The notes under the pieces: generated by a model | The model's database searches: none | Seen by the model: the letters and a program-made list of their open reading frames with translations, nothing else | Told to the model about the DNA's origin: nothing | In this document: piece after piece, positions 1 to 19,377 of the stretch | How the letters are laid out: the number at the start of each line of letters is the position of its first letter | Position numbering within the stretch: position 1 is the stretch's first letter | Program-made: the position numbers and the translations under genes | Source of the DNA: a virus | Taxonomy: Duplodnaviria > Caudoviricetes | Reading direction: 5' to 3' (one strand) | Length of the DNA: 27,511 bases | IMG/VR virus record: IMGVR_UViG_3300012664_000116 | Span: 1 to 27,511 of that record

Positions 1-14
1 AACCGTGTAAACAT
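1..14 (-). CDS. 5' end of a gene running off the window (MFTR...)
   Basis: ATG at 14-12 with AGGAG Shine-Dalgarno at 25-21, just downstream of a sigma70 promoter. Confidence 0.55.
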
Positions 15-41
15 TAACTTCTCCTAAACTATAACACCTAC

Positions 42-70
42 ACTGTAGCATATAGAGTAGGAAAAGTCAA
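42..70 (-). promoter_or_regulatory. sigma70-type promoter with extended -10
   Basis: TTGACT (70-65), 17 bp spacer, TGc-TACAGT (47-42). Confidence 0.75.
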
Positions 71-73
71 TAC

Positions 74-256
74 TTATTTACGAGGATTTGCAGCGTCTTG
101 TACGTTCTGCACAAGATGCTCAACAGCAGTAGCTGTGTAAGGTTGATCCTTATCGTTTACTACGCCGCCTAATGTAACAACATCAGCAACAACAGCAACG
201 GGAATCTCTACTACAGACACGGCGGCTTTTACCACAGAGTTTAAAATACTAAACAT
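74..256 (-). CDS. small hydrophobic hypothetical phage protein (60 aa)
   Basis: AAGGA SD upstream; Val/Ala-rich N-terminal half. Confidence 0.75.
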   Translation of the reverse strand: MFSILNSVVKAAVSVVEIPVAVVADVVTLGGVVNDKDQPYTATAVEHLVQNVQDAANPRK

Positions 257-291
257 TTTGTTTCCTTTCGATGATGGCTAACTTTGGCTTA

Positions 292-711
292 TCAGAGGGC
301 TTCGTCATCTTCTTGAGTTGGAGGAACGTAGGTCTTAACCTCTGTAATCATCAACTTCTTGACTGTAGGAGCATTACCATGCTTAGCTGACATACGATGA
401 GTGTAAGCTGAGATAACAGCTACGCACTTAGAACCATTACCTAAGTCAGCTACATTGACTTCCTTCATGGAGTCATCGGTAGGATTGAACAAGTACTTGC
501 TCTTAGCGACAATGAAGTTACCTTGAGATTCCTTGTGTTTGACTTTGATACCTAAGCCAGTGAGCTTAGCTGCATCATCATCGCTGATATTACCAATGGT
601 GCACTCATAGCGATCGTTATCACTGTTGAATGCTGTGTTGAATTCAGCCATCCACTTAGACCAAAACAATTCACCGTTAATCTTAACTGGTTTCAAATCT
701 GCTGTTGACAT
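292..711 (-). CDS. probable single-stranded DNA-binding protein (T7 gp2.5-like)
   Basis: 139 aa, beta-rich pattern, acidic tail (QEDDEAL), downstream of the DNA polymerase, AAGGA SD. Confidence 0.6.
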   Translation of the reverse strand: MSTADLKPVKINGELFWSKWMAEFNTAFNSDNDRYECTIGNISDDDAAKLTGLGIKVKHKESQGNFIVAKSKYLFNPTDDSMKEVNVADLGNGSKCVAVISAYTHRMSAKHGNAPTVKKLMITEVKTYVPPTQEDDEAL

Positions 712-733
712 ACTCTAGTTTCCTTTTACTAAG

Positions 734-889
734 TTAGGCCGTAGCCTGAGGTTGTTGCTCAACTGGCATCTGAGATTGTGCCTGTTGTACAAGCTTCTGT
801 AACAATACAAAAGCGTTGCTCTTTGTAGGTAGTTCACCAAGCACGTTGATGATGAACTCTACTTCATTTTGTTCCAATTCTAACTTCAT
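734..889 (-). CDS. 51-aa hypothetical protein absent from the ORF track (MKLELEQNEVEFIINVLGELPTKSNAFVLLQKLVQQAQSQMPVEQQPQATA)
   Basis: Hand translation; AAGGA SD; fills the gap between its neighbours. Confidence 0.8.
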   Translation of the reverse strand: MKLELEQNEVEFIINVLGELPTKSNAFVLLQKLVQQAQSQMPVEQQPQATA

Positions 890-902
890 TTACGATTTCC
901 TT

Positions 903-1088
903 TTACTGTAAATAGCTTCCTTCTTTGCGGGAGAGAGCTTCCGCTTCATCTTCAATGTAATCAAGGGCTGCTGAGAGCACCAAGTATACATCAAGGATGT
1001 CCATATCATCGCTGTGCATTATCATGAAAGATTCATCGCTAATGTTCAGCATGATTTGAGATTTTAATTTATCTGATTTGTCTATCAC
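903..1088 (-). CDS. acidic hypothetical protein (61 aa)
   Basis: GTG start overlapping the upstream stop (GTGA); GAGG SD. Confidence 0.75.
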   Translation of the reverse strand: MIDKSDKLKSQIMLNISDESFMIMHSDDMDILDVYLVLSAALDYIEDEAEALSRKEGSYLQ

Positions 1089-1474
1089 TTGTATTCCTCA
1101 AGGTAGTCTGCTGCTTTTCTAAGCAATTCAGGTTTATCTTTGAATAGTCCTAAAGCTCTGTTGCAATTATGACACAAAAGCTTTCGAACTTTCCCCGTAT
1201 CGTGACAATGATCCACAGCAAGTTTTTCACTATGGTTGTTCTTACCTATCAAGAAACCTTCTGAATAACAGATATAACACTTGTTGTCTTGTTCTTCCTT
1301 CATTCGAGCGAGATCAGCATCCGTTATACCGTAGTTTAGCAGATAGTAAGAATTCTTACCTTTGCACTTAGGAGAACAGTAGATATTACAAGGGTTCGTA
1401 GGAGTAAAGACCTGCTTACAAGTCTTGCACTCTTTATCTTTGAAATACCCGTTTGGATACTTAGTGACAGTCAT
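1085..1474 (-). CDS. endonuclease VII-family (His-Me finger) nuclease with N-terminal Zn finger, probably a free-standing homing endonuclease
   Basis: CYIC...LAVDHCHDTGKVRKLLCHNCNRALG signature; N-terminal CxxC...CxxxC. Confidence 0.85.
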   Translation of the reverse strand: MTVTKYPNGYFKDKECKTCKQVFTPTNPCNIYCSPKCKGKNSYYLLNYGITDADLARMKEEQDNKCYICYSEGFLIGKNNHSEKLAVDHCHDTGKVRKLLCHNCNRALGLFKDKPELLRKAADYLEEYK

Positions 1475-3158
1475 ACCAGTTCTTCCCCGATTTCCATTCA
1501 GCGCCTACAGGACAACGAAACTTGAGAATCTCTCCAGCTTCTTTAGCAGATTCTACCACGAGCAGGCCAACTTGTTCAGCGTACTGCGGTTCAGTTTCGA
1601 TTTGGATTTCATCGTGTACCCATGCAATGAACTTGAACGGAATCTTTGACTCAGTGAGTTTTCTATTAGCACATACAATCCATTGTTTAGAGATAATAGC
1701 TCCAGCTGATTGAAGAAGAGTATTGAGCGCACTGTGTTCAGAGCGTACCCACAGCTTCCTTCCGTCAAGGCCCGGTAGCCATCCTTTCGCAGCATACGTA
1801 GCAACCTTTCTTTTGAGTTTGGCATACGCAGGGACGCTCCGCTCAAAATTATCAATAATGGTTTGCCCTCTCTTGGCATTAGCACCAATAATTGTCCCGA
1901 TCTTGGAAGGTGACGCACCATACAAGGTGGCATACAGTACTGTTTTTGCATCATTCCGTGAATCGACACCAAAAGCATTTTGGTTCCTTGTATGGACATC
2001 ACCATAAACAACTTCCTTTGTATAGTCATCATCATTCAAGTAGTGAGCAAAGCACCGAAGCTCGATACCCGACAAGTCAACACCCACTTGAACCATTCCT
2101 TCTTCAACTGTCCAACACTGGCGGCACTCCTTCCCATAAGGGCTAGAAGAGTTTGGAATCTGTCCCATATTAGGGCTAGAGTGTGTTGCACGACCTGTAA
2201 TCGCTCCATTGGTAATCACACGACCATGCACACGACCATCAGAGCCTAAGAAGGAGAACCATGACTCAATCTGAGCGATACGTTTCTGAAGCATCATGTA
2301 CTCAGCTAACAAACCAGCAATGGGGTACTTCAAACCCATCAGAGTAGATTCATCAACGATCACTGAGCCCTTCTCAGTCTTCTTCGTAGGCTTCCAACCC
2401 AATCCGATCAACTTCTCAGCTATCTGTTGTCTAGATGCTGGATTGAAGGTAATCACCTCAGGCTTCAATGTCTTCCCTGTCTTCTCAGAGATACGTTCTT
2501 GCTCATAAGGTGGATAGAGTTCCTGCATCTTGTCATAGATGACACCCATCTTGAGTTTCAAATCTGACAGGAGACAAGTAGCGTGAACTACATCAAGCTT
2601 GAATCCATTGGTTTCCTGCTTCTTGATGATAGCTGCGACTTGATGTTCTAAAGCGACAGAATCCAGAGAGAAACCTTTGCTGTTGATACCATCAGTAAGA
2701 TGATTAAACAAAAGATCAAGCACTCTGACATCGCGTCTGCAATAGAACTCAAGTAAGCCTTCCAGCGGCTTGTCGAAACATTCTCCGTCATATTCTTCCC
2801 TTCTGTTCATCATCCACTGCCACGTTGCTTTGTAGTCCAGCTTCTGAACTCCTAGCTCTTTTCCCCAAGCGTCCAGAGAGTGTCCCTGTTCCCTTGTTGG
2901 CTCTAACAGTCGTGAAACCACTAGAGTGTCATAAGCCTTCTTAAGGCCTATCTTAGTCCCCCACAGCTTATTCAGCAGAGGGAAGTCAAATCCGATACCG
3001 TTATGAGCTGCAATCAAGTCAGCATCTTTGAGATAGTCCCATAGACCGTCACCTGATCGCCACACACGTACTTCACCGCTATCGATGTCTTCTGTGACAG
3101 CTAAGTGAATGACAGTGTGAGCCATGTTGGTTTCACAGTCGATTGCAATACGTTTCAT
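1461..3158 (-). CDS. polA: family A DNA polymerase with 3'-5' exonuclease (565 aa; start moved to ATG 3158)
   Basis: ExoI IDCET, ExoII HNGIGFDFP, motif A DLSGIELR, motif B RNDAKTVLYATLYG, motif C VHDE; TAATG coupling with the upstream gene. Confidence 0.95.
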   Translation of the reverse strand: MKRIAIDCETNMAHTVIHLAVTEDIDSGEVRVWRSGDGLWDYLKDADLIAAHNGIGFDFPLLNKLWGTKIGLKKAYDTLVVSRLLEPTREQGHSLDAWGKELGVQKLDYKATWQWMMNRREEYDGECFDKPLEGLLEFYCRRDVRVLDLLFNHLTDGINSKGFSLDSVALEHQVAAIIKKQETNGFKLDVVHATCLLSDLKLKMGVIYDKMQELYPPYEQERISEKTGKTLKPEVITFNPASRQQIAEKLIGLGWKPTKKTEKGSVIVDESTLMGLKYPIAGLLAEYMMLQKRIAQIESWFSFLGSDGRVHGRVITNGAITGRATHSSPNMGQIPNSSSPYGKECRQCWTVEEGMVQVGVDLSGIELRCFAHYLNDDDYTKEVVYGDVHTRNQNAFGVDSRNDAKTVLYATLYGASPSKIGTIIGANAKRGQTIIDNFERSVPAYAKLKRKVATYAAKGWLPGLDGRKLWVRSEHSALNTLLQSAGAIISKQWIVCANRKLTESKIPFKFIAWVHDEIQIETEPQYAEQVGLLVVESAKEAGEILKFRCPVGAEWKSGKNWYDCH

Positions 3159-3304
3159 TACTTTAAGTTTAAGAATAAGCCGATCTGGGCAAATGAGTAT
3201 CCTAACCACATGATACCAGCACCCATGTCACCTTTGAGCCACTGTAGCACACCTACAACAGAGTAACCGATACCGATAGTACCTACGATAATCATTTCAA
3301 TCAC
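3158..3304 (-). CDS. small two-helix membrane protein (about 48 aa; likely GTG start at 3304)
   Basis: AGGAG SD before GTG; two hydrophobic segments; the longer start in the ORF track overlaps the upstream gene. Confidence 0.65.
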   Translation of the reverse strand: MIEMIIVGTIGIGYSVVGVLQWLKGDMGAGIMWLGYSFAQIGLFLNLK

Positions 3305-3494
3305 TGTTGTTCTCCTGAATATACCGATCAGCAATTTTGCTTTTAAGTTCTTTGTCATCAATGCCAAGAATCTCAGCAATACGTCCTACGATGTAGGCTG
3401 CATCACCTCTTGACATATTTCCATAACCGACAAGACTGCGAATGTAGTCAGCACTGTATGTGTACGGATAGCGTGAATCAGTTTTATCCATCAT
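3297..3494 (-). CDS. hypothetical protein (65 aa)
   Basis: ATGA overlap with the helicase stop; GGAGG SD. Confidence 0.75.
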   Translation of the reverse strand: MMDKTDSRYPYTYSADYIRSLVGYGNMSRGDAAYIVGRIAEILGIDDKELKSKIADRYIQENNSD

Positions 3495-5113
3495 AGAGCC
3501 TCCAAAGTAACTTCAATCATACGTCCAGTGTCCATATCGTACTTCAGAGAGCAAGCTGGACCTGTGAGGCCTGCGAATCTGTTCTTCGCAACAGCAACCT
3601 TTGTCGTGTGACGTACTTCAGGGTCATCGCTCATGGAGTTACGTTCAAGAGTGATAACAGCATCAGACAACTGAGCAATAGCACCAGAGCCACGTAGCTG
3701 AGATAAGGATACCGCTGAACCATCTTCATGTCCTTTGTCAGTGTTAGGTCTTTTGAGGTGACTAACACAAATGAGTGTAATACCTGTTTCTTGTACAAGT
3801 GTTCGTAACCTCGTCATCAAGACATCAATGCTTTTACGTTCATCGTTGCCTTCCATGCCTGAGACAACCAATGAGATGTGATCTAGGAAAACAATCTTAC
3901 AATCACAGGCCCTAGCCATGTACCTAATACGATTAAGGACATTATCAATAGCGAGAGAACCAAAGTGGTCAAAGAGGAATACACGATTAGTACCGAGAGT
4001 TGCATCGAATGCCTCCTTTAATTCTCGTTCTGTGACTTGGGTATCAGGGAGATGGAGTTTCTTATTTGAGTGCAATGACATAATGCTGCGGGCTGTCTTT
4101 CGCACCGACTCTTCAAGAAACATCCCTCCAATATTCCATCGAGTCGATTTGAGGATTTGAAAAAGAATTTCTCTAAGGAATTGACTCTTGCCAAGGCCCG
4201 ATCCAGCTGTGACTGTAATGAGTTCAGCTGATCTAAGTCCGTAGAGGAGTTCATTGAGTCCTTTGAAGGGATAGAAGGCTTCTGCGACTGGTTCAGGTGT
4301 AGAAACGCTGTCCCAGAGACTACTTGCTGCGACAATACCATCTGGAACGTATGCTTCACTACGCCACCATTGGTTAACGTACTCAGTTGATCTTCCGCTA
4401 ATGAGATAGTCACAGGCATCTTTACAATCCTTTAAATGTTTAACAATCTTAACCTTATTACCGAACAGCTCAGCAACCTCTTTAGCGGCCTTCTGTCCAA
4501 CTTCATCAGCATCGAAACAGATCACGATAGTCTCGAAGCTATCTAAGTACTCATATTGAGCTTTGCAGTCTTTAACAGCCGATGAAGCTCCATTACGGAT
4601 ACTCACAGTAGGCCACTTGCTGCCTGTTAACTGATACGAAGCTAATGCGTCTAGTTCACCTTCAACGATGGTGATGTACTTCCCTTGCTTCTGGAACAAA
4701 TTCTGCCCAAAGAGCGTAGCTTTGTTGAAGTTACCTGCAATGGAGAATGTCTTATTCTCTACTAAACGAATCTTCTCAGCTACCTTAGCGCCTGTCTCAT
4801 CAAAATAAGGATAGTAGTGCTTCCCTTGATCTTGAGTAACACCATAGTACTCACAAGTATCCCTTGAGATACCTCTGTCAGCTATGGCCTTAACTTCCCC
4901 TGTTGTCTTCATTTGAAATACCTTTGTAGTGCTTCGTTGCACGTCTTGTTGAGCACGAAATTCCGTACCTTCTGCCGCTGTGTAAGCGTGACATACATGG
5001 CAGTATTGGTGTCCATCATCGTACAGAGATGAACCATCGCTAGAGCCACAATGCTCACAAGGACAGTGCTTAATGAACTTAGAGGCTACTTTGAGTGCGT
5101 TAGAAGTCATCAA
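3491..5113 (-). CDS. T7 gp4-like DNA primase-helicase
   Basis: Zn-binding CEHCGSSD...CHVC, TOPRIM EGELDAL and FDAD, SF4 helicase Walker A AGSGLGKS, FLDHIS, SHL, LRGSGAIAQLSD, KNR. Confidence 0.95.
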   Translation of the reverse strand: MMTSNALKVASKFIKHCPCEHCGSSDGSSLYDDGHQYCHVCHAYTAAEGTEFRAQQDVQRSTTKVFQMKTTGEVKAIADRGISRDTCEYYGVTQDQGKHYYPYFDETGAKVAEKIRLVENKTFSIAGNFNKATLFGQNLFQKQGKYITIVEGELDALASYQLTGSKWPTVSIRNGASSAVKDCKAQYEYLDSFETIVICFDADEVGQKAAKEVAELFGNKVKIVKHLKDCKDACDYLISGRSTEYVNQWWRSEAYVPDGIVAASSLWDSVSTPEPVAEAFYPFKGLNELLYGLRSAELITVTAGSGLGKSQFLREILFQILKSTRWNIGGMFLEESVRKTARSIMSLHSNKKLHLPDTQVTERELKEAFDATLGTNRVFLFDHFGSLAIDNVLNRIRYMARACDCKIVFLDHISLVVSGMEGNDERKSIDVLMTRLRTLVQETGITLICVSHLKRPNTDKGHEDGSAVSLSQLRGSGAIAQLSDAVITLERNSMSDDPEVRHTTKVAVAKNRFAGLTGPACSLKYDMDTGRMIEVTLEAL

Positions 5114-5396
5114 TCAACTCCTGCCTAGCTCCACAGTCATCACACTGCCCATAGCTCCAATGAGGCGCTGAGTACATGGGTCCACCACACACATCACAGG
5201 TACACTCTTCTTCTGAGTGGTCCATTTCGTTATCATCGTGTTTATGTTCATTCATAGTCGTATCCTTCTTGTTTCCCGCAGCCGTAGGCGAGGACTCTGG
5301 TGCTTTAGCACCAAAGATCAAGTCCCAATTGTCTCGGACCTTATTGACGTCTTCCTTACGCCTTCCTGATCCTTTACCGCCATCTCCATGACTCAT
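5100..5396 (-). CDS. hypothetical two-part protein (basic GDGGKGS...NWDLIFG module plus acidic Cys4 Zn ribbon)
   Basis: ATGA overlap upstream; CDVC...CDDC; internal SD and ATG at 5255. Confidence 0.7.
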   Translation of the reverse strand: MSHGDGGKGSGRRKEDVNKVRDNWDLIFGAKAPESSPTAAGNKKDTTMNEHKHDDNEMDHSEEECTCDVCGGPMYSAPHWSYGQCDDCGARQELIDDF

Positions 5397-5989
5397 GTGT
5401 TCTTCTCCAAGTGCTCATTCTTCGCCTTGAGTTTGGCTTCAATAGCTTTATAAAAATCATTAGCGCTATCAAATTCCTGCCCACGGTCGTTTAGCTCTTT
5501 GCGTATGCCAACAATTTCCTCATCCGTCAGCCCAACCCATGTGAGAGGCGTAGCCGAGCTACTGCGAGCGATAGCGGAATGCTGTGGTGGGGTGGTGTAG
5601 AGAGCGTGCTTATAGCCGCCTTCAATTCTTGCGTGTTCCTCTGGGTTAATTGCGTCAATGAAATCCCCGTTGTCATGCAACATCGCCCACGCCACAGGCT
5701 CCAAATGCTCGCTAACGCTGCGCTGCTCTGGCTGTGTCAACCATGTCGGTGGCTTTCCAAGGGGAGGCTTCCAACGCTCACCTCCGTGATAGGTATACCC
5801 GAGACACGTAAGCGTGTTAATCGCCGCGTTTTGCTCCTGCTCTGTCTGTAACAATGCTTCTTCAATGGCATCTATTTCTTGGCCAACTTCCCAATGTGAA
5901 TATCGGTCGCCGCGAATCTTTTTGAACGCCTCCAGCGCCAGCTTCATCGTATCTACGATACTTAATGCTTCACGTTCTTTCGATGTCAT
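5393..5989 (-). CDS. mosaic accessory phage protein (EPVAW / LYTTPP / WVGLTDEE modules; likely start 5989)
   Basis: GGGAGG SD and ATGA overlap; modules of a kind common in proteobacterial phage accessory genes; more GC-rich codons than its neighbours. Confidence 0.75.
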   Translation of the reverse strand: MTSKEREALSIVDTMKLALEAFKKIRGDRYSHWEVGQEIDAIEEALLQTEQEQNAAINTLTCLGYTYHGGERWKPPLGKPPTWLTQPEQRSVSEHLEPVAWAMLHDNGDFIDAINPEEHARIEGGYKHALYTTPPQHSAIARSSSATPLTWVGLTDEEIVGIRKELNDRGQEFDSANDFYKAIEAKLKAKNEHLEKNT

Positions 5990-6195
5990 AGCTTCACATC
6001 CTCCCACTTAGACAAGTCAGCGATAATGTCCGCTAGAACGCTCTCAGAGAGCCCTTTGTACGCTGTGTACCCTTGGGTAGTAGCTTTGAGAGATTCGAGC
6101 ATCTGACAGGCTTCTAAGCCCTTTAAAGCATACTTGTGTGCCATGACCTGCTCAGGTTTAGACAAATCATAGGTTAATGTTGCAATACCACTCAT
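5986..6195 (-). CDS. hypothetical protein (69 aa)
   Basis: AAGGTG SD; coupled to both neighbours. Confidence 0.7.
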   Translation of the reverse strand: MSGIATLTYDLSKPEQVMAHKYALKGLEACQMLESLKATTQGYTAYKGLSESVLADIIADLSKWEDVKL

Positions 6196-6248
6196 TTTAA
6201 TGACACCTTTATCAAAGTTAAGACAAATACAAACAATGAGATCACCAT
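6192..6248 (-). CDS. 18-aa hydrophobic micro-ORF (MVISLFVFVLTLIKVSLK)
   Basis: GGAG SD; overlaps the upstream stop and the downstream start (ATGA). Confidence 0.45.
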   Translation of the reverse strand: MVISLFVFVLTLIKVSLK

Positions 6249-6430
6249 TTCTTTTCTCCCATAGCAGCCCTTAGGTCTGACGTTACTTTATCCCATCCGT
6301 ACAAGACAATCAATTCAACAAAAGCATTAATTGTGTGGACATAGTGGAATTCCTCGTTCATTAGAGTCTGATCTCTAACTTCTTCTTCGTTTGTAGACAT
6401 AAAATCTTTCATGTTATTCACTTCTTTCAT
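6242..6430 (-). CDS. hypothetical protein (62 aa)
   Basis: AAGGGG SD. Confidence 0.7.
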   Translation of the reverse strand: MKEVNNMKDFMSTNEEEVRDQTLMNEEFHYVHTINAFVELIVLYGWDKVTSDLRAAMGEKKW

Positions 6431-6511
6431 GTTGACCCCTTTATACTTTAAAGTAGTTTTAATGATAATAACAATAAAGTAAGTATTTACTTTAATGTAG
6501 CTTTAATGATC

Positions 6512-6778
6512 TTAATGTTCATCATAGTCTCTAGAGTACTCTAATGTATCTATAATGTCATCAATGTCTCCTAGGGAAGCTCCTGTGTCCAGATCATCGT
6601 CAACGTCATCATGGTCTAAGTCAGCCTCAGTTATGAGGTCTTTACGATCAATCAACTTCACAAATGGCTTGATGTCTTCAAGACAAACTTTACATAAGTC
6701 CATGTATTGACCAGTAACAGCGTTTTTGAGAGTACTCTGGTACTCCGTGAGTAATTTATCACAAGCTCTACAATGAAT
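6512..6778 (-). CDS. Cys4 Zn-finger protein with acidic tail (88 aa), apparently starting at ATT
   Basis: Frame stays open 25 codons above the ATG at 6703 and supplies CRAC to pair with CKVC; bounded by an in-frame TAG. Confidence 0.65.
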   Translation of the reverse strand: MHCRACDKLLTEYQSTLKNAVTGQYMDLCKVCLEDIKPFVKLIDRKDLITEADLDHDDVDDDLDTGASLGDIDDIIDTLEYSRDYDEH

Positions 6779-6848
6779 TTTCCGTTCCTACCCTTCTCCG
6801 TAAGTGGTGAGTGTGTTTTAGAGCCTTCTAGCCCTGTTTAAATCGTTC

Positions 6849-6992
6849 CTAGAGGCATTTCTGCATCATAGGAGCATCTGGTATTCGCTTCAGTTGATCT
6901 TCAGCATACTTTCTCTGTTGTTCCGGCGTCCAAGGCTTAGGTGGACATTCTGCCGGAAACGGCCAGTTGTTAATGTGTTGTTTATTTACCAC
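6849..6992 (-). CDS. 47-aa Pro-rich hypothetical protein (..NNWPFPAECPPKPWTPEQ..)
   Basis: Hand translation; GGAGG SD before GTG. Confidence 0.6.
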   Translation of the reverse strand: MVNKQHINNWPFPAECPPKPWTPEQQRKYAEDQLKRIPDAPMMQKCL

Positions 6993-7045
6993 AGATCCTC
7001 CGCAATAAGGTAATCAATACAATAACAGACAAAGAAGATAGTCAT
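6986..7045 (-). CDS. 19-aa micro-ORF (MTIFFVCYCIDYLIAEDLW)
   Basis: ATGA overlap with the upstream stop; its stop lies just inside the next gene. Confidence 0.4.
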   Translation of the reverse strand: MTIFFVCYCIDYLIAEDLW

Positions 7046-7329
7046 ACAATCCCCGTTTCGTGTAGTTTGTATTGTGTACCGCCTTCAATGCCTAGATCAT
7101 AAGACAGATTGTCGATAGCATCCCCGAATTCATCCCATTGTTTAAAATAGTCTAAGTCATCCACTGTAGACCCTTGATTCACTAAAGGTGAATACTTTTC
7201 TAGTACTTCCTTACATTGTTTTAGAAGATAGACCAATTCGTCACGGGTTGAAACTAGTTCATCACATAGTGGGTTACCTTCAGCCCATAAGCGACGTTCT
7301 AGATTGTTGAATTCATTGTTACTTAGCAT
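7042..7329 (-). CDS. early hypothetical protein (95 aa)
   Basis: AAGGG SD; overlaps the upstream gene end. Confidence 0.75.
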   Translation of the reverse strand: MLSNNEFNNLERRLWAEGNPLCDELVSTRDELVYLLKQCKEVLEKYSPLVNQGSTVDDLDYFKQWDEFGDAIDNLSYDLGIEGGTQYKLHETGIV

Positions 7330-7517
7330 GATAGCCCTTTCGTTAAACAGATTTGAGAGACACCATTCTCTCGCTTAGTGTGTCGTTCATACGTGATTGA
7401 ACCCTCAGCCTTGAGGAATTCATGTTCTGATACTTCTTTTAAATCCCACGGCATGACATCATCGTCGGGTTCATAATCAACGACAAAGAACCTAACGGGT
7501 AGAGTAGCGAATGACAT
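7323..7517 (-). CDS. early hypothetical protein (64 aa; likely start MSFATLP at 7517)
   Basis: AAGGGG SD before ATG 7517; avoids overlap with the upstream gene. Confidence 0.65.
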   Translation of the reverse strand: MSFATLPVRFFVVDYEPDDDVMPWDLKEVSEHEFLKAEGSITYERHTKRENGVSQICLTKGLSC

Positions 7518-7534
7518 GTTTTGACCCCTTGAGT

Positions 7535-7864
7535 TTAAAATACTTGATAAACGATAGAACCGGAAGACGTTTCGCCACAGATAGCGGTATTGTCGCAAAG
7601 ATAGCCCATCACGGCTTGTTTTGCTTTACCCTCTGTTAAGCCTTCAATATCAATATCGTAATTTTGGGCTATGTCTTCAAAATGATCTTCGTTAAAGTCG
7701 CAACATAATGCGATAACGTCCAATTCTAGTTCTTCGCCGGTACTGTCTTCGTATTCCATGAGATAGTCAAACAAAGTTTCTAAGCCTTCGTGACTGAAGT
7801 TATCTAAGCGGTTAAACGCACGGAAAGCTTCGCGGAAGTCGTTAAAATATACGGTTGTTTTCAT
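7535..7864 (-). CDS. strongly acidic early protein (109 aa), function unknown
   Basis: AAGGA SD; hand count 24 D/E versus 6 K/R. Confidence 0.8.
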   Translation of the reverse strand: MKTTVYFNDFREAFRAFNRLDNFSHEGLETLFDYLMEYEDSTGEELELDVIALCCDFNEDHFEDIAQNYDIDIEGLTEGKAKQAVMGYLCDNTAICGETSSGSIVYQVF

Positions 7865-7897
7865 GGTGTAGATCCTTTACAAGTTGATAGACTGGTA

Positions 7898-7944
7898 CAG
7901 TGTACCCCATAAGAGCCACATAGTAGCCCTTATAAGTTAAACTG
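7898..7944 (-). promoter_or_regulatory. long RNA hairpin, candidate RNase III processing site
   Basis: CAGUUUAAC-UUAUAAGGGCUAC-uau-GUGGCUCUUAUGG-GGUACACUG, about 20 pairs; the G-U pairs work only on the minus-strand RNA; no U-tract. Confidence 0.55.
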
Positions 7945-8025
7945 TTAAGCGGTGAGCCATACCACTAGTATAGCTACAAAGCCGAGAACGTAGATTACTT
8001 TGTCTGCGAGTTGATTGTTTGACAT
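7945..8025 (-). CDS. 26-aa single-helix membrane peptide, first ORF of the early transcript (MSNNQLADKVIYVLGFVAILVVWLTA)
   Basis: Hand translation; UAAGGA SD; one hydrophobic span. Confidence 0.65.
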   Translation of the reverse strand: MSNNQLADKVIYVLGFVAILVVWLTA

Positions 8026-8074
8026 AATCGTGATCCTTAGATGTGTCATAGCGAGACTGCTATGTTTAGTCTAT

Positions 8075-8091
8075 TGCATGTACCGTGCCAA
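8075..8091 (-). promoter_or_regulatory. sigma54 (RpoN) -24/-12 promoter
   Basis: Minus strand TTGGCACGGTACATGCA versus consensus YTGGCACG-N4-TTGCW, exact GG-N10-GC spacing; predicted +1 near 8064. Confidence 0.75.
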
Positions 8092-8158
8092 CTATGATTA
8101 TGTAGTACTACAGTATTACTTATAAGATATACACTGAGATTATGTAACCTATTATCTT

Positions 8159-8179
8159 ATGTGTTGTTTATTTACCACA
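8159..8179. repeat. 21-bp exact direct repeat / palindromic operator, second copy at 6973-6993, variant at 8556-8573
   Basis: ATGTGTTGTTTATTTACCACA twice; core TGTTG-N8-CMACA. Confidence 0.8.
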
Positions 8180-8186
8180 CTATTGT

Positions 8187-8255
8187 TGCACCATTTTAGT
8201 GATAACTTGCACTACAATGAATAACATGTGGATATCTTTACACTGTATTGGTGCA
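8187..8255. promoter_or_regulatory. NtrC-type enhancer boxes
   Basis: TGCACCATTTTAGTGAT (8187-8203), weaker TGCACTACAATGAATAA (8208-8224), TACACTGTATTGGTGCA (8239-8255) versus TGCACYA-N3-TGGTGCA. Confidence 0.65.
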
Positions 8256-8356
8256 TAATTGCTTACACCATTGTAAGTTTCACATTGTGATAACTAGGTG
8301 TTTACCCTTAGATGTGTCTGTTTAGGTGTGTCTTAATAGGTGCTACACTGACCTAC

Positions 8357-8403
8357 ACACTACCTATAGTGTCCGTCTAAGTCTCAGACACTACCTATAG
8401 TGT
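8357..8403. repeat. two copies of the 16-bp dyad ACACTA-CCTA-TAGTGT
   Basis: Exact copies at 8357-8372 and 8388-8403, 31 bp apart. Confidence 0.85.
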
Positions 8404-8437
8404 TTGCTTTGTAGTTACTTGATAGGGGGGAGGGGTA

Positions 8438-8648
8438 GGCTCTTGTGTTTACTTTTGCTGGAGCCTCTTAAGTACACAAAAAAGAATAATTAAGAAAAGA
8501 CCTTATATGACTAAAAAGTCTAATGAAATCAAAGAAGTTATGGACTAAGATAGACTGTTGTGTAAATACAACACTAATGTAAAGACTAATCTGTGCACAG
8601 GAGCCTTGCATAGGATCACTTGAGGACTAGAAAGTAGACACAAGAGCC
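8438..8648. repeat. 18-bp inverted repeat pair (17/18)
   Basis: GGCTCTTGTGTTTACTTT (8438-8455) and AAAGTAGACACAAGAGCC (8631-8648). Confidence 0.8.
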
Positions 8649-8705: not shown

Positions 8706-8733
8706 TTGACAATTGAGAAAAGTGCTGTACAAT
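8706..8733 (+). promoter_or_regulatory. sigma70-type promoter for the packaging/virion arm
   Basis: TTGACA-16-TACAAT with an A-rich UP-like tract upstream. Confidence 0.75.
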
Positions 8734-8990
8734 TCTCTATGAAGGTAATCCTTCCAAGAACTCAAATGAAGACTTTGTAGACAGGCTACTCAGTTAATAC
8801 AGGAAGTTTCTAAGTGAGTTACTTTGTTGGCCTAGTGTCTTCCTTAGTGTATCTAAGAAGATGAACACAAGAGGGCAATAAGTAAGTATATACTTCATTT
8901 AGATTCTTGCATATAAGTTAAATGTCATAGTTACTTTAAAGTACTCTACTTGTAGTACTTACTATAGTCTATCTCCAATTAAGGACAAAG

Positions 8991-18805: not shown

Positions 18806-18976
18806 ATGGTAACTAAGAAGCAACAATCAGCTAAGGTAGGTAAAGTTATGGGTGAGTACAAAGAAGGTACTCTCCATAGTGGCAAGGGTGGTCCTGTCGT
18901 TAAAGACCGTAAGCAAGCCATTGCAATCAGCCTTTCGGAAGCTGGTTTGTCTAAACCAAAGAAGAAAAATAAATGA
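18806..18976 (+). CDS. small basic DUF6496-like protein (56 aa), absent from the ORF track
   Basis: KVMGEYKEGTLHSGKGG...RKQAIAISLSEA; ATGA overlap with the next gene. Confidence 0.75.
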   Translation: MVTKKQQSAKVGKVMGEYKEGTLHSGKGGPVVKDRKQAIAISLSEAGLSKPKKKNK

Positions 18977-19377
18977 TTTCTGCTGAATACGCTGCTGGTT
19001 TTATGGATGGAGAAGGGTGTATTAACGTTTCTTCTTGCCGAACTACTTCATTTATTCGTGTTTTAGTTGTGAATACTAATCGTGAAGTATTGGAGTTGTT
19101 TCAGCAGCGTTGGGGTGGAGATATCAAGCAAAACAAGCAGCAGAAAGCTCACTGGAAAGTTTCCTATACTTGGCGTGTTTCTCATGCAGCCTGTCGTGAG
19201 TTTTTAGACGATATTTATCCGTTCTTGGTTGTAAAGAAAAAACAAGCCGAAGCTGCTTTTATCTTCTTTGACCAACAGCCCGGTAAAGGTAAGAGATGGA
19301 CAGACAGTAGTCTTGAAGAAGCTAACAAGGCTATCCTAGCAATTAAACAGCTAAACAAAAAAGGCGTAGAGGTATAG
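18973..19377 (+). mobile_element. free-standing single-motif LAGLIDADG homing endonuclease gene
   Basis: N-terminal YAAGFMDGEGCI; FLDDIYPFLVVKKKQAE motif; 134 aa. Confidence 0.85.

Follow-up and report, generated by a model that had tools for sequence, protein, structure and literature searches.

A conserved, probable sigma54 promoter with NtrC-type boxes heads the replication arm of an uncultured phage lineage

Does the nitrogen regulator of a bacterial host start the replication genes of a phage? The question is raised by virus record IMGVR_UViG_3300012664_000116 (Caudoviricetes), of which a 27.5-kb piece with two divergent arms, here called the window, was analysed at its full length. A preliminary description had read the DNA between the arms as a sigma54 promoter with an NtrC-type enhancer, and this reading is borne out by sequence conservation and by controls. 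Our best explanation is that a conserved sigma54-type promoter with NtrC-type boxes heads the replication arm, that host NtrC-P likely fires it, and that the start of replication is thereby tied to low nitrogen. We consider this explanation, taken as a whole, to be probable.

The minus-strand arm, below position 7864, codes for a T7-type primase/helicase (3491-5113; phrog_239, E 9e-189) and a family A DNA polymerase (1461-3209; phrog_17, E 1e-130), and we infer from this gene content that the arm is early. The plus-strand arm, from 8991, carries terminase, portal, capsid and tail genes. Complete relatives have 36-38 kb. In two of these, G001 and G002, the minus arm extends with genes for an exonuclease, endonuclease I and a class II ribonucleotide reductase, and the two arms run outward from a single non-coding region and meet at a terminator-like hairpin. 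By its sequences, the clade is one of uncultured podovirus-like phages of about 37 kb. Searches by terminase, portal or capsid found no close cultured relative: the portal is less than 27% and the capsid less than 34% identical to that of any cultured phage, and the small terminase has no match among cultured phages. The primase is 45-50% identical to those of SIO1/cobavirus-like and HTVC103P-type podoviruses, and the capsid protein has at least 8000 relatives.

Members of the virus cluster carry no host names. The genome collection gave three contigs in Bacteroidota-type MAGs, at about 50% identity, which are probably misbinned. No Pfam or PHROG match to an integrase or HTH repressor was found in 38 window proteins and 37 proteins of G001 and G002 (those without a window homologue, out of 67 listed). 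A regulator of an unrecognised kind is possible, because many small genes belong to no family. An endonuclease VII-type gene that adjoins the polymerase (1085-1474) and, among the tail genes, a gene annotated as an HNH endonuclease (18973-19377) are both probably mobile, because G001 and G002 showed no full-length homologue of either.

The sigma54-type -24/-12 promoter is located at 8091-8075 on the minus strand. It reads TTGGCACGGTACATGCA, with GG at 8089-8088 and GC at 8077-8076 in the GG-N10-GC arrangement; both sequence and coordinates are as first described, and the predicted +1 counts to 8064. The element is intergenic and directed into a gene, with a Shine-Dalgarno (SD) sequence and then an ATG at +40. 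The wider context, YTGGCACG-N4-TTGCW around a GG and GC 10 bp apart, is also present. The base at -15 is A rather than T, as in 14 of 120 bacterial promoters (T is found in 35). Matrices for sigma54 and NtrC were trained on 120 bacterial cassettes from metagenomes, with phage data kept out. In this scoring, which the preliminary description had proposed as a check, the promoter reaches 22.5 bits and is the best site on either strand of the window; the bacterial median is 20.9 bits. In G001 and G002 the early-arm site is the one sigma54 site of at least 17 bits in the whole genome. Plain consensus counts in the window alone, from starting motifs that we take to represent sigma54 and NtrC sites, gave four matches against 1.3 and 1.2 expected. 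This enrichment is mild, so the case stands on position and conservation.

Relatives were picked by their small terminase and not by the motif. Eighty of 153 confirmed terminase loci were taken, 57 of which (window included) had 1.5 kb of upstream sequence, and 52 were left after collapse at 90% identity. An early-strand sigma54 site lies within 1.5 kb in 42 of these 52 deduplicated loci. The corresponding figures are 2.1 for shuffles (at most 6) and 0 of 49 for stretches of adjacent coding DNA; the loci share kinship, and such counts do not represent independent events. The motif is conserved in related contigs, a point that the preliminary description had proposed to check. Among the 35 closer loci (terminase at least 57%), 27 have the site and are called the close loci below. 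Three bases that the filter did not use, Y at -27, R at -20 and W at -11, fit in all 27, and the flanking 260 bp are near saturation, with an identity to the window of 0.59 versus 0.53 for shuffled DNA under the same aligner. A first scan with a loose sigma54 pattern was mostly noise, with 100 of 120 matches outside the family; an NtrC box accompanied 12 of the 20 family members and 2 of the 100 others. Taken together, the predicted sigma54 promoter is very probably real.

A quick tree places the window in a 26-member clade with support of 100, wherein 23 loci carry site and boxes, one carries the site only, and two carry neither. Ten of the 52 loci have no early sigma54 site, and the cassette is dispensable within the lineage. 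Two loci with identical terminase rows, L087 and L088, differ in box layout, which suggests module exchange, with chimeric assembly as a possible alternative.

Upstream of the promoter, three 17-bp boxes had been described, with centres at -131, -152 and -183 and spacings of 21 and 31 bp. These positions are right, but only the outer two boxes hold as such. The box at -131 (8187-8203) scores 12.7 bits and is the top NtrC-type site in the window; that at -183 (8239-8255) ranks second with 10.0 bits. Perfect half-sites are present in these two, the first and third boxes, as claimed. The middle element (8208-8224) scores -3.8 bits as a full box and is a half-site only. The boxes of the window are of moderate strength: they are weaker than bacterial secondary NtrC sites, whose median is 17.3 bits, and the NtrC sites of E. 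coli glnAp2, taken from the K-12 record, score 22.5 and 21.4 bits.

The arrangement recurs in relatives. An NtrC-type box with at most three mismatches lies at -220 to -40 in 25 of the 27 close loci, compared with 0.14 in shuffles and 0 of 27 in the downstream region, and an unseeded search for palindromic dyads ranked GCAC-N7-GTGC first, with 18 of 27 loci. Boxes recur at -129 to -134 in relatives, and in the range searched the commonest position of bacterial boxes is -126 to -131. In the -152 slot, the GTGCA half is kept in six of the 27 close loci, window included, and a full box is found in L005 and L090. Neighbouring boxes of the close loci are 21, 30-32, 41 or 52 bp apart, most commonly 21, whereas bacterial spacings are mostly 30-32 bp. 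The distances of the window's boxes fall in the range of about 100-190 bp expected of a glnAp2-type enhancer, and the boxes keep only modest phase with the promoter (R 0.45 at 10.5 bp over 21 unique positions, p ~0.013).

Six loci (L003, L073, L077, L079, L088 and L093) carry two opposed sigma54 promoters that have one enhancer in common. In these loci the promoter that faces the G-tract and late arm has the distal box at -41, a position from which bound NtrC would be expected to block it. The arrangement looks like an either-or switch.

At the other end of the cassette, a 6-bp hairpin (8047-8064, minus strand) had been noted at the predicted transcript 5' end. Its position is supported, since a stem of at least 6 bp begins at +1 in eight of the 27 close loci, window included, versus 0-2 at 16 other offsets. 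Taken by itself, the hairpin does not stand out (-7.5 kcal/mol, z -1.16). The signal for covariation is weak: two of seven pairs are changed on both sides in eight hand-picked sequences, and 49 of 500 shuffles reach as high.

The transcript would then meet an SD sequence, TAAGGA (8034-8039, minus strand), whose AAGG column is kept in all seven aligned loci. The first gene (7945-8025, minus strand) starts at +40 and codes for a hydrophobic, membrane-type peptide of 26 amino acids with no Pfam match. Homologues of 25-26 hydrophobic residues are the first gene in eight of the 27 close loci and in L083, and an SD plus ATG lies at +17 to +48 in 22 of the 27. The 109-amino-acid gene at 7535-7864 (minus strand), a member of a viral family of unknown function, had been a candidate for first gene of the arm and was rejected, as the 26-codon gene at 8025-7945 comes before it. 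A non-coding reading of the stretch 6700-7040 was also rejected. It contains a conserved 47-codon gene (6849-6992) with a GTG start and a WPFP motif, which falls below the usual size cut-off and has no Pfam match. On the way from the promoter to the primase and polymerase genes there is a single weak terminator-like site (7372-7355), and the sigma70 matches there reach no more than 9/12.

Further elements lie among the boxes and between them and the promoter. A degenerate DnaA-type box with one mismatch to what we take to be the DnaA motif is located at about -167 (8227-8235, minus strand), between two NtrC-type boxes, and L074, L078, L098 and L121 have boxes that match the consensus at -167/-168. 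DnaA-type boxes are found up to 400 bp upstream in 18 of the 27 close loci, 47 boxes in all, versus none in coding DNA and 4 of 120 bacterial cassettes. A 20-bp palindrome of the GTGTTG-N8-CAACAC type is located at -106 (8161-8180), between enhancer and promoter. Palindromes at -106/-107 occur in 13 of the 27 close loci, and a loose match somewhere in 130 bp occurs in 11 of the 120 bacterial cassettes. The element looks like an operator and might be a HexR site. It belongs to a perfect 21-nt repeat shared with 6973-6993. This second copy (6973-6994) lies over the start of the conserved 47-codon gene (6992-6849), and a third copy (8555-8574) is found about 130 bp ahead of a late sigma70 promoter. 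The presumed consensus for IHF is absent between enhancer and promoter in the window; it is perfect in one of the 27 close loci and present with at most one mismatch in three. TTACA/TGTAA repeats at 8100-8145 (-36 to -90), just upstream of the promoter, are kept in many close loci.

Which protein would act on the boxes? The sigma54 holoenzyme requires an enhancer-binding ATPase, according to the available part of one source (PMC5491218). The preliminary description saw no activator gene in the window, and the protein scans agree: neither a sigma54 activator domain nor a Fis-type HTH (PF00158 or PF02954) was found among the window proteins scanned or in any of five near-complete relatives. Nor was a recognisable phage RNA polymerase present. 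With no recognisable activator gene in the phage, the activator would be the host's. The rpoN and ntrBC genes of this host are assumed here. The box-plus-promoter pattern was also run on metagenome contigs, giving 120 bacterial loci from 3 of 64 parts; 75 of the first 80 have a downstream ORF, and all 75 were scanned. These genes code for glutamine synthetase (36), a Gcw_chp porin (12), P-II (6), Pyr_redox proteins (3, nitrite-reductase-like by our reading), a urea-type binding protein (2), an ammonium transporter (1) and an NMT1-type protein (1), with five others and nine without a match. By sequence family, they match the NtrC regulon, with its glnA, amtB and glnBK core and its nas, nar, nrt and urt extensions, as given in the accessible portion of a previous study (PMC5343134). 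E. coli glnAp2 carries the same type of box as the phage cassette. Host NtrC is thus most probably the activator.

Our explanation can be stated as a series of steps. Host sigma54 holoenzyme would sit on 8091-8075 as a closed complex. NtrC-P dimers would occupy the sites at -131, -152 and -183, assemble into oligomers and reach the promoter by looping, so as to open it. A transcript with a 5' hairpin would run from near 8064 through the small early genes into the primase/helicase and polymerase genes. Firing probably needs fairly high NtrC-P (low glutamine, high 2-oxoglutarate), because the boxes of the window are only moderate. The DnaA-type box and the -106 palindrome are probable extra inputs, by bending or repression. 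Replication would start under nitrogen limitation, not plenty. This would suit a cell that has carbon and energy to spare, or else a feed-forward loop in which infection depletes glutamine, as has been suggested for the NtcA sites of cyanophages (PMC3037559). From this architecture, we can reasonably infer that the replication genes are gated by nitrogen status.

Whether the phage makes a real decision to delay is a separate matter, and we would call such a decision possible but somewhat doubtful; the cassette may instead only scale early transcription, in a host that is nitrogen-limited most of the time. A repressor-free switch between waiting and replicating had been suggested. This is put in doubt by the -106 palindrome (13/27), the DnaA boxes (18/27) and the late sigma70 promoters (10-11/12), and the sigma70 sites in the distal early arm of complete relatives also weigh against it. 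On the late strand there are five sigma70 sites of at least 10/12, including one of 11/12 at 8706-8733 (plus strand) that faces the terminase and virion arm. Something must hold these late promoters back. A true waiting state also needs a silent sigma70 late arm, for which the sequence gives no explanation.

A bolder version of our explanation, which is rather unlikely, holds that these lytic podoviruses, as a widespread aquatic lineage, use host NtrC-P as the ignition key for infection. The closed complex would stay silent until carbon is in excess over nitrogen, with the DnaA boxes as a growth input. Only the first few hundred bases, with enhancer and sigma54 promoter, would act at first. 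Transcription by sigma54 would then express the replication arm and draw in or license the rest of the genome, and the sigma70-driven virion and lysis arm would come last without any repressor. If this is true, sister phages with a sigma70 promoter in its place would represent an 'always go' strategy in the same lineage.

These sister phages also bear on the strongest rival, wherein the NtrC/sigma54 cassette is effectively constitutive. If the host is nitrogen-limited, or infection drains glutamine, the promoter would provide strong sigma70-independent transcription and there would be no decision. In the window, the early strand (1-8420) has no sigma70 site of at least 10/12, consistent with the earlier remark that the arm lacks a good sigma70 promoter; matches of only 9/12, such as that at 7948-7920, occur at background frequency. 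In G001 and G002, sites of 10-11/12 are found inside the distal early arm. In relatives, sigma70-type sites can take the place of the cassette before this arm: a strong early sigma70 site is present in 4 of 10 loci without an early sigma54 site versus 1 of 42 with one (Fisher p 0.003), and L083 has the same first gene behind a TATACT element, without a sigma54 site. These swaps favour the constitutive reading, as do the plain sigma70 late promoters and the argument of Sullivan et al., in the available text, that nitrogen stress caused by infection turns on NtcA promoters (PMC3037559). However, the graded boxes, the DnaA and palindrome sites and the opposed sigma54 promoter in six loci suggest tuning. 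This rival, which shares the mechanism of our explanation and differs only in its consequence, appears unlikely.

A second rival is that another host Fis-family or enhancer-binding protein, of the betaproteobacterial Fis, NtrX or PilR type, binds the boxes, so that the promoter answers to something other than nitrogen. The DNA-binding fold of NtrC is also that of Fis. In addition, sigma54 pilin promoters occur in Betaproteobacteria, as described in the part available of one paper (PMC6528607). Yet box and promoter precede nitrogen genes in the bacterial cassettes, and pilin genes stand behind none of the 75 scanned; that search was for near-perfect boxes, and paralogues might accept degenerate ones. 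We consider this rival very unlikely.

Only slightly less probable than this is the idea that the cassette serves DNA transactions at a genome end, wherein sigma54 transcription primes or opens an origin, with DnaA boxes and a G-tract as its marks, or pulls the genome into the cell. The abundance of DnaA boxes in the close loci relative to both control sets points in this direction. Arrays of 2-7 DnaA-type boxes, like those of a bacterial origin, were noted in L080, L081, L087, L096 and L100 and in L008, L117 and L128; they lie between enhancer and promoter or in loci without an early sigma54 site. Cumulative GC skew turns near 7.5-8 kb. A conserved G-tract with the motif TTACTTTTG (8425-8457) lies between the arms and is found in most relatives. 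It is possibly a packaging, terminus or origin signal or the primer site of an R-loop, and its distance from the promoter is about 290-400 bp in the clade. In distant relatives, sigma54 sites start 14-15 bp from the G-tract or face it at 50-75 bp, with no gene between. Against this, the promoter of the clade faces an SD and gene in 22 of 27 loci, the DnaA box of the window is degenerate, and contig ends mark no terminus. The idea is also compatible with our explanation.

Other repeats were observed nearby. Two copies of ACACTACCTATAGTGT, each partly palindromic, are located at 8357-8403, just inside the G-tract. AT-rich repeats with the palindrome TACTTTAAAGTA are found at 6444-6567 and 8932-8943, ahead of a 62-amino-acid early gene and ahead of the terminase, and similar repeats are kept in relatives. 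They might possibly be the site of a phage factor or a middle promoter.

Distant relatives differ from the window clade in several respects. A box lies upstream of a canonical sigma54 site in one of 15 distant loci, several have one to three sigma54 sites beside the G-tract, and 18 of 30 strict-pattern matches near the terminase face the terminase rather than the early arm. In L120-L146, one to three tandem near-perfect sigma54 sites have no gene directly behind them and could be decoys or sources of short RNAs. In L129, L136, L139 and L145 (about 660-710 bp from the terminase start) and in L106 (1060 bp), a perfect IHF consensus lies ahead of TGGCACG. The TGGCACG follows it by 20 bp, and the GC stands at N14 rather than N10, a 4-bp shift. 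The element is directly ahead of the first early gene, with NtrC-type boxes upstream of it in the first four loci. It could be a sigma54 promoter of non-canonical form, or else a sigma70 promoter that NtrC activates and in which the -35 overlaps a -24 box.

The distant loci with two or three tandem sigma54 sites, which no gene directly follows, are what speaks for a further rival, that boxes and -24/-12 element act as decoys and titrate the NtrC and sigma54 of the host. The preliminary description had offered titration as its alternative. In the window clade this is weakened by the fixed orientation, the +1 hairpin and the boxes at enhancer distance from a promoter that faces a ribosome-binding site and gene. 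There are only two to three moderate boxes per genome, and the arm has no other strong promoter. Decoys are a scarcely credible reading here. Finally, chance matches in AT-rich intergenic DNA, with the arm using a weak sigma70 promoter such as the 9/12 match at 7948-7920, would fit the mild consensus counts of the window (4 versus about 1.2 expected) but are refuted by the conservation statistics and controls and have practically no probability.

In lakes and seas, the choice between lysis, delay and pseudolysogeny is thought to depend on nutrient limitation, but few phages have a known molecular sensor. The window lineage, which is large and uncultured, appears to have one textbook host-type promoter at the head of its replication arm. 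Neither the phage nor its host is needed to test the cassette in E. coli, and the natural sigma54/sigma70 variants provide built-in controls. From the cassette one would predict that the host is a proteobacterium with rpoN and ntrBC and that lysis is tied to the cellular C:N state. In IMG/VR, strict NtrC-plus-sigma54 cassettes number 65 (L391-L455, not deduplicated), and about half of them (32) lie beside homologues of window genes. For the other 33, none of 12 window proteins has a homologue within 2.5 kb, so the cassette is also carried by other phage groups or elsewhere in related genomes.

Among known systems, the glnAp2, glnA and glnK-amtB promoters of Proteobacteria have the same -24/-12 core, 17-bp boxes and distance range as the phage cassette. 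In contrast to these bacterial NtrC promoters, the phage cassette heads replication genes, has weaker boxes that are often 21 bp apart, and includes interleaved DnaA boxes and the -106 palindrome. It also differs from the IHF-assisted glnHp2 type, as 26 of the 27 close loci have no IHF consensus. The T7-type primase and polymerase and the two arms are features that the lineage has in common with SIO1/cobavirus-like and HTVC103P-type podoviruses, whereas its remote portal and capsid and its small terminase without a match mark it as an uncultured lineage.

The sigma54 promoters of Pseudomonas phage YuA reportedly serve morphogenesis and lysis genes, whereas in the window the sigma54 site stands before the replication genes and sigma70 sites stand before the virion arm. 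YuA is virulent and depends on host sigma54, and such use of sigma54 by phage is known and is called rare; the available parts of these sources mention no activator or NtrC enhancer (PMC5053324; bioRxiv 2023.10.13.562163). In cyanomyoviruses, NtcA sites are scattered at 1-16 per genome, unlike the one fixed enhancer-dependent promoter that heads an arm in the window lineage. NtcA is a CRP-family factor that acts at sigma70 promoters. Its sites in marine cyanomyoviruses are likewise a predicted use of a host nitrogen regulator by lytic phages, according to the portion of that study available (PMC3037559).

Phage DNA also reads a host regulator, without a phage sensor, in the cases of CtrA in alphaproteobacterial phages, Spo0A in phi29 and the LexA-controlled phages, as covered in the accessible text of one source, wherein NtrC and nitrogen do not occur (PMC9437464). 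Deferment in those systems is mainly by repression or cell-cycle timing, whereas for the window phage the host factor is proposed to be an obligatory activator. A full-text literature search, mostly outside subscription journals, turned up no report of a phage in which an NtrC enhancer is paired with a sigma54 promoter. What the window adds to the known systems is lineage-wide conservation with controls, a position at the head of the entire replication arm, natural sigma70 swaps, and interleaved DnaA boxes.
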